Assembly: GCF_044324785.1 (NCBI RefSeq)
Contig: NZ_CP172128.1
From: Escherichia coli
GTDB taxonomy: Bacteria; Pseudomonadota; Gammaproteobacteria; Enterobacterales; Enterobacteriaceae
DNA: 64,000 bases
Direction: 5' to 3' (one strand)
The stretch's first letter is position 1; each line of letters opens with the position of its first letter. Made by a program: the position numbers. Below, one piece after another: positions 63,101 through 64,000 of this stretch.

Positions 63101-64000
63101 CACCTACTCCGAGATGCGCTTCGGCGCCACCGGTCCAAAGGCATCGCCACGCCACGTGCAGCTGGTTGACGCGTTCTGCGCCCGTCTCGATGCCATCCTG
63201 CCCTGGGATCGCGCTGCGGTGGATGCAACCACGGAGGTTAAGGTGGCGCTGCGCCTCGCCGGCACGCCGATCGGTCCGAACGACACGGCGATCGCCGGGC
63301 ACGCCATCGCCACCGGGGCAATACTGGTGACGAATAATGTGAGAGAGTTTGAGCGGGTGCCTGGACTGGTACTGGAAGACTGGGCAGGATAAAGGAGTAA
63401 GGCCGCCCCCGACGGCCTTACCACTATTTTGCGATGTCAGTCGTATTCATTTTCAGCGTTAAAAAAGGGCTCTATACGAATACGTGTATCAGCGTGAGTA
63501 AGTTTCGGCGGCCTGATAAATCCACTATTTCCCAGCTGGACAGCCAGTTGCCACATGGCATCACTACGGGGAATGCTACGATAATTCCTCTCTGTGAGGA
63601 AAGCGGCATAATCCTGATGCCCGAACGTCATGAGCACCTGTCTGATGAACTTGTGTGACCCACCGTCATTTTTAAGACATTGCATCAGCAGTGCCTGCTT
63701 CTGCCGGTCATCGGTTATTTTGGTGGAGAACCTTATCAGGGCTTGCTGGCTGAGAAGTGGTGCCTCAGAGAGCAGGGCTTCATCTTTTTCCCAGAGCCAG
63801 TTCAGGATACTGATACAGACTTCATCTGCAATCTTATCGCCATTCAGAATTAAACGAGTAATCCCCAGGTCAAACTGGTCATCAGCAAATAAAACAAGCT
63901 GAACCGCCCCGGGAATCCTGGAGACTAAACTCCCTGAGAAAGAGGTAAACAGAATGACTAAAAATACTCGTTTTTCCCCCGAAGTCCGTCAGAGGGCGAT

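Follow-up and report, generated by a model that had tools for sequence, protein, structure and literature searches.

A 3' remnant of the anti-phage defence gene tmn between an intact vapBC module and an IS629/IS1203-type element on an IncK2/Z-type plasmid of Escherichia coli

Tmn and the identity of the startless reading frame

Tmn (transmembrane NTPase) is a single-gene anti-phage defence system, whose product is a membrane-anchored P-loop NTPase of the YobI family, with two transmembrane helices set within its NTPase domain and a long, alpha-helical (solenoid-like) arm at the C-terminus. According to later papers on Tmn, the gene was first implicated in anti-phage defence by Gao et al. (2020, Science 369:1077), and phage resistance conferred by the single tmn gene has been published for ECOR25 as well as for other variants (PMC13001434; bioRxiv 10.1101/2022.08.21.504612). 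In E. coli, tmn is frequently plasmid-borne, and on F plasmids it is co-located with VapBC within the leading region (Wu et al., bioRxiv 10.1101/2022.08.21.504612), and the clade of plasmid-borne Tmn of Enterobacteriaceae has been named Ib (PMC13001434). As described in the same 2026 preprint (PMC13001434), Tmn is a decameric membrane complex with long, cytosolic, helical proximal and distal arms that bind the T2 protein RIIB, and its activation leads to ATP turnover, Mg2+ export and plasmolysis, by which the infection is arrested. The NTPase is essential, since NTPase mutants abolish Tmn defence, and fragments comprising only the distal arm bind the phage trigger weakly (PMC13001434).

The locus described here lies at the end of the window, meaning the whole stretch of 64,000 nucleotides of E. 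coli DNA that was analysed (assembly GCF_044324785.1, contig NZ_CP172128.1), and is the remnant of a Tmn member rather than a functional member. It is identical in sequence to the final 153 codons of plasmid-borne tmn and retains the same genomic setting, convergent with vapBC, but no more than a minor part of the distal arm is left, the proximal arm having been lost together with the NTPase domain and its two membrane helices. It also differs in its carrier, being located on an IncK2/Z backbone, whereas the plasmid-borne tmn is found on F-type plasmids.

Translation of the minus strand upward from position 63437 gives a single unbroken frame, which ends in a TGA stop codon at 63437-63439. The list of open reading frames places the first ATG, GTG or TTG of this frame at the ATG at 63685 with none upstream, so that an ATG-initiated internal ORF of 82 amino acids occupies 63437-63685 on the minus strand, while the preceding 214 nt (63686-63899) are coding-like and open without a start codon. 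The same frame continues free of stop codons for about 90 nt inside the adjoining insertion sequence. The original prediction of a frame that is open from the IS boundary down to the stop at 63437, with a startless upstream part, is hence borne out by both the minus-strand translation and the ORF list. Its boundary at 63898 holds as the IS junction but not to the exact base, as the last base of the gene is 63899 and the difference reflects rounding to whole codons. The terminus of the insertion sequence, TGAACCGCCCCGGG, begins at 63900, and the breakpoint of the gene thus coincides to the base with the left terminus of the element, as expected for the 3' portion of a gene that is truncated in its 5' part at an IS629-type element. 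Base 63900, the first T of the element, also agrees with the intact gene, which leaves an ambiguity of 1 nt in the position of the breakpoint.

The gene had been regarded as one of unknown function, and comparison with plasmids bearing the uninterrupted gene, a check suggested at that time, resolved its identity. A megablast search with the 507 nt from 63393 to 63899 against 72,556 plasmids matched 428 records, 409 of them at an identity of at least 99%, and of the 442 plasmid records that match tmn, 405 contain 80% or more of it at a single site. On the F-type plasmids pRHB33-C07_2 of E. fergusonii (L001) and pM160133_p2 of E. coli (L002), the query matches the 3' end of a gene of 1,264 codons, which in both plasmids is convergent with vapBC (L001, 5045-8839). 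The 463 bases from 63437 to 63899 on the minus strand correspond with 100% identity to nt 3333-3795 of this intact gene of 3,795 nt, and when the ambiguous base is included (63437-63900 against nt 3332-3795 in L001), 464 of 464 nt are identical. The stretch thus begins within codon 1111 and runs through codons 1112-1264 to the stop, without a start of its own, and codes for amino acids 1112-1264 of 1,264 (153 codons, about 12% of the protein).

That the gene is tmn follows from this identity together with the match of its product to the PADLOC profile PDLC02220 (Tmn), which the intact parent covers end to end (2,225 bits, HMM positions 9-1273) and to which the 153-residue fragment alone aligns at positions 1122-1273 with an E value of 7.2e-69. 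The startless frame is therefore the last 153 codons of a known anti-phage defence gene. The intact parent is also a clear member of the YobI-like P-loop NTPases (Pfam PF20693, YobI-ATPase, 2.7e-103; amino acids 34-423 against the full profile, 1-363), and this domain is wholly missing from the window. Its Walker A (GPYGAGKS, residues 54-61) and Walker B (IFEDLDR, residues 271-277) motifs were located in the intact relative, and the part that separates them holds two strongly hydrophobic segments, at about 152-176 and about 195-216. Judged by plasmid location and length, the parent would belong to clade Ib. Searches with the full-length parent gave no match in NCBIfam (release 20) and no relatives in a PDB sequence search, and a constant offset does not place the published mutated residues of Tmn-25 onto the parent protein. 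In existing annotation the product of intact tmn is variously named 'pcar' (in many RefSeq records), 'hypothetical protein' or, in newer annotation, 'YobI family P-loop NTPase'.

The transplanted vapBC-tmn block and its plasmid background

Immediately beyond the tmn stop lies an intact vapBC toxin-antitoxin pair (62749-63392), which is conserved on F-type plasmids as a convergent neighbour of tmn and has the same arrangement on L001 and L002. Both genes are on the plus strand, with vapB at 62749-62979 (Pfam MazE_antitoxin, 3.6e-9) and vapC at 62976-63392 (Pfam PIN, 7.6e-15). Between the convergent stop codons of vapC and tmn, a G+C-rich hairpin flanked by runs of T on both strands (63396-63422) forms terminator-like sites in both directions and looks like a bidirectional terminator common to the two genes. 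Just upstream of vapB, at 62597-62709, at least six head-to-tail copies with a period of 17 nt and the core CATCTGCATAT / GCATAT were observed, overlapped by imperfect inverted symmetry and contained in the part that is common to F-type plasmids. This array may be a VapB operator array or an iteron-like element.

The similarity to F-type plasmids is sharply delimited. A blastn comparison of L002 with the window gave 99.6% identity over 62561-63900 and nothing beyond, the left junction is sharp at 62560/62561 in a base-level view, and the right junction is the end of the insertion sequence. The resulting block of 1.34 kb (62561-63899) contains the promoter region of vapBC, vapBC itself, the terminator and the tail of tmn. 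Since F-type homology is confined to this block, it is a transplant from the leading region of an F-type plasmid that now lies in an IncK2/Z plasmid, with another broken piece on either side. On its left, an ORF of 528 amino acids with a TraI_middle domain (61077-62560, minus strand) abuts the block at 62560/62561; the closest relative annotates the counterpart as a pseudogene of the IncI1-type relaxase NikB that is missing its N-terminus, and a separate intact relaxase is present elsewhere on the plasmid.

This closest relative, pLH10-b-1-A (NZ_CP100531.1), is a complete IncK2/Z plasmid of 169 kb from poultry faeces. The window is collinear with its first 66 kb at 99.97-100% identity, except for three IS differences: an IS21 (after 11363) and an ISEc45 (near 18009) are present only in pLH10-b-1-A, and an additional IS3-family element, at about 49195-50524, only in the window. 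Position 1 of the window corresponds to the start of repA of a plasmid of this kind, annotated as 'incFII family plasmid replication initiator RepA' and typed as IncK2/Z.

The insertion sequence at the breakpoint and the missing part of tmn

The presence of a second copy of an IS629-type element, as originally predicted, is confirmed. The first copy is complete, with 1,309 bp and TGAACCGCCCCGGG termini, at 21310-22618 on the minus strand. Of the second, on the plus strand, the window holds the left end (63900-64000; IRL TGAACCGCCCCGGGAATCC), including the orfA start codon at 63954. These 101 nt agree with the full copy at every position, and in pLH10-b-1-A the two inverted copies differ at 0 of 1,309 positions. 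The provisional naming as IS629/IS1203 of the IS3 family is based on the length of 1,309 bp, the terminal inverted repeats and the layout of orfA and orfB joined by a frameshift. In relatives the element is annotated as 'IS3 family transposase' and a frameshift pseudoknot is marked as a feature, and a region with 98.5% identity in one plasmid hit (H97) bears the label 'IS1203 family'. A length of 1,309 bp is also found in locus L007 (24891-26199) and in L008 (record positions 66145-67453), while some related records have 1,310 bp. RefSeq marks the transposase of these copies as 'frameshifted' (pseudogene) and not as 'programmed frameshift', and both copies may be transposition-defective.

A fresh insertion of an IS3-family element is expected to carry a direct target duplication of 3 bp. 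The expected duplication is absent at both copies, whose flanks read AGC-IS-AAC and ACC-IS-CTC, and it was not obtained in any of the four flank pairings tried. The remainder of tmn is likewise missing. Neither blastn nor tblastn detected other tmn sequence in the window, the 5' part was absent from the related loci L003 and L004, and no other piece of tmn is present in the complete 169-kb sequence of pLH10-b-1-A.

As the window ends 101 nt into the second copy, its far side was deduced from close relatives, and these differ at this point. In pLH10-b-1-A the far side is an acyltransferase gene, while pS30-1 and the AR_0085 plasmid have an HTH/astA region there. The window has the HTH/astA-side sequence next to the first IS copy instead, and in pS30-1 it is the acyltransferase side that adjoins the other copy. 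From this exchange of IS flanks it follows that the pS30-1 type and the type represented by the window and pLH10-b-1-A differ by inversion of the segment of about 42 kb between the inverted IS copies. The other IS copy of pS30-1 is further interrupted by a group II intron (ltrA).

The junction itself is shared. An identical tmn/IS junction was found in 11 PLSDB plasmid records, 10 of which span the whole query and one of which is interrupted where its circular record begins, and again in 11 complete E. coli records of RefSeq. Every carrier that was inspected or typed belongs to the IncK2/Z or IncI-gamma/K1 plasmids. Poultry is the main source of the records, and two come from black kites. The shared junction points to one ancestral event. 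A synthetic query for the reciprocal junction, composed of the right end of the IS and upstream tmn sequence, had both halves matched in none of the 72,556 plasmids.

The original reading of the stretch as the 3' part of a gene truncated at an IS629-type element is thus essentially right. The proposal that tmn was interrupted by the second IS copy can be accepted only in part, as an insertion sequence is indeed present at the breakpoint, but a simple interruption does not agree with the absence of the remaining 3,331 nt and of a target duplication. Had IS629 simply inserted into a complete tmn, the gene would be merely split, with its 5' part just past the element. In favour of this reading, the window contains only the first 101 nt of the IS and does not show the far side, and insertion sequences do split tmn elsewhere, as the IS1 within tmn in NZ_CP104517.1 (H164) shows. 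Such a split is nevertheless very unlikely, because unrelated DNA follows the IS in each of the three plasmids inspected that have the exact junction, the closest relative, 99.97-100% identical to the window across 64 kb, has no other tmn sequence, and the synthetic reciprocal junction finds no plasmid and no target duplication is seen. The absence of the missing tmn part, of a target duplication and of a reciprocal junction instead indicates that the IS marks the endpoint of a deletion or recombination and not a simple insertion. Deletions and inversions associated with IS629/IS1203 offer the parallel, with the element abutting a truncated gene and two identical inverted copies having recombined. 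In the order of events that we infer, the IS629/IS1203-type element would have come to abut tmn at nt 3332/3333 either through homologous recombination between IS copies following an insertion or through an IS-mediated adjacent deletion, and the data fit both routes. The 100% identity of the remnant to intact tmn indicates that the event was recent.

Damage to tmn is also seen independently of this junction. Besides the IS1-bearing gene of H164, the record NZ_CP107166.1 (H176) matches only nt 394-3795. Such cases suggest a recurrent inactivation of tmn across plasmids.

What the remnant retains and what it means

The remnant would represent the last 150 or so residues of the distal arm, at the tip of the arm that senses the phage. 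Since the window encodes amino acids 1112-1264 and no further piece of tmn, it has neither Walker A nor Walker B, and the remnant contains no membrane segment (maximal Kyte-Doolittle hydropathy over 19 residues, 0.87). A single-sequence AF2 model of the 153 residues is all-helical, with nine helices over residues 6-124 and a disordered tail, at a moderate mean pLDDT of 66.5. This predicted helical fold is consistent with the end of the Tmn distal arm at the level of overall architecture.

A consensus scan of the minus strand from 63686 to 64000 predicted no sigma-70-like promoter site, and upstream of the ATG at 63685 the sequence can be read to contain a weak Shine-Dalgarno-like motif, AAGCAGG. 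On the basis of such scans, the remnant would not be expressed. Without a promoter, a start codon and a catalytic domain, it would be unable to defend against phage. The stretch is very probably a non-functional 3' remnant of tmn, restricted to amino acids 1112-1264 of 1,264, and to judge from its sequence it is almost certainly an inert leftover. Its persistence would probably be due to the recent date of the event and to its position, flanked by the IS and by vapBC, an addiction module under selection.

A different view would be that expression of the remnant, through the internal ATG at 63685 or through transcription reading out of the IS, yields a small, soluble portion of the sensor arm that has a function of its own, for instance by acting as a dominant-negative partner of Tmn made by an F plasmid in the same cell or by serving as a phage-trigger decoy. 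The 82-residue ORF is intact and is called 'hypothetical protein' (WP_045146807.1) in some RefSeq records, such as that of pS30-1, the all-helical bundle of the AF2 model suggests that the fragment could fold, and the junction is unchanged across the 11 records that share it in each of the two collections, PLSDB and RefSeq. Nonetheless, there is little chance that this holds, given the lack of a promoter-like site upstream on the minus strand and the weakness of the ribosome-binding motif. The conservation among the plasmids sharing the junction is explained by recent common descent, in pLH10-b-1-A, the closest relative, the remnant bears no RefSeq (PGAP) annotation, and the 100% identity to the intact gene does not point to adaptation for a new role. 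The same identity makes sequence decay uninformative about selection in either direction. The more specific version, that an 82-residue protein initiated at 63685 interferes with the Tmn of a competing F plasmid or soaks up the phage trigger, is more improbable still; if it were true, an IncK2/Z plasmid would have turned a gene fragment produced by an IS into an anti-defence or plasmid-competition factor.

When used alone, the fragment gives no match in a Pfam search, and its match to CesT in NCBIfam (E 0.026) was rejected as spurious, being far below the cutoff. The missing Pfam match would suit a chance open frame in non-coding DNA, belonging to no gene, but there is practically no room for such a reading in view of the base-for-base identity to the end of a 1,264-codon gene, present to at least 80% in 405 plasmid records, and the strong match to the Tmn profile.

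The stretch is accordingly an IS-generated pseudogene remnant next to an intact vapBC module, and as both the gene and the defence system are already known, the finding is an ordinary one. Its value lies mainly in annotation, in that the stretch should be labelled as a pseudogene fragment of tmn (YobI-family NTPase), instead of being left blank or called a hypothetical protein as in RefSeq. For surveys of defence systems it carries a caution, since a strong match to the Tmn profile (E 7e-69) may stem from a dead fragment of 12% of the protein. For the biology of these plasmids, the locus provides a small and clean example of how insertion sequences erode plasmid defence genes, of the movement of a vapBC-tmn block from the leading region of an F plasmid into an IncK2/Z poultry plasmid, and of how identical inverted IS copies keep reshuffling the IncK2/Z plasmid.
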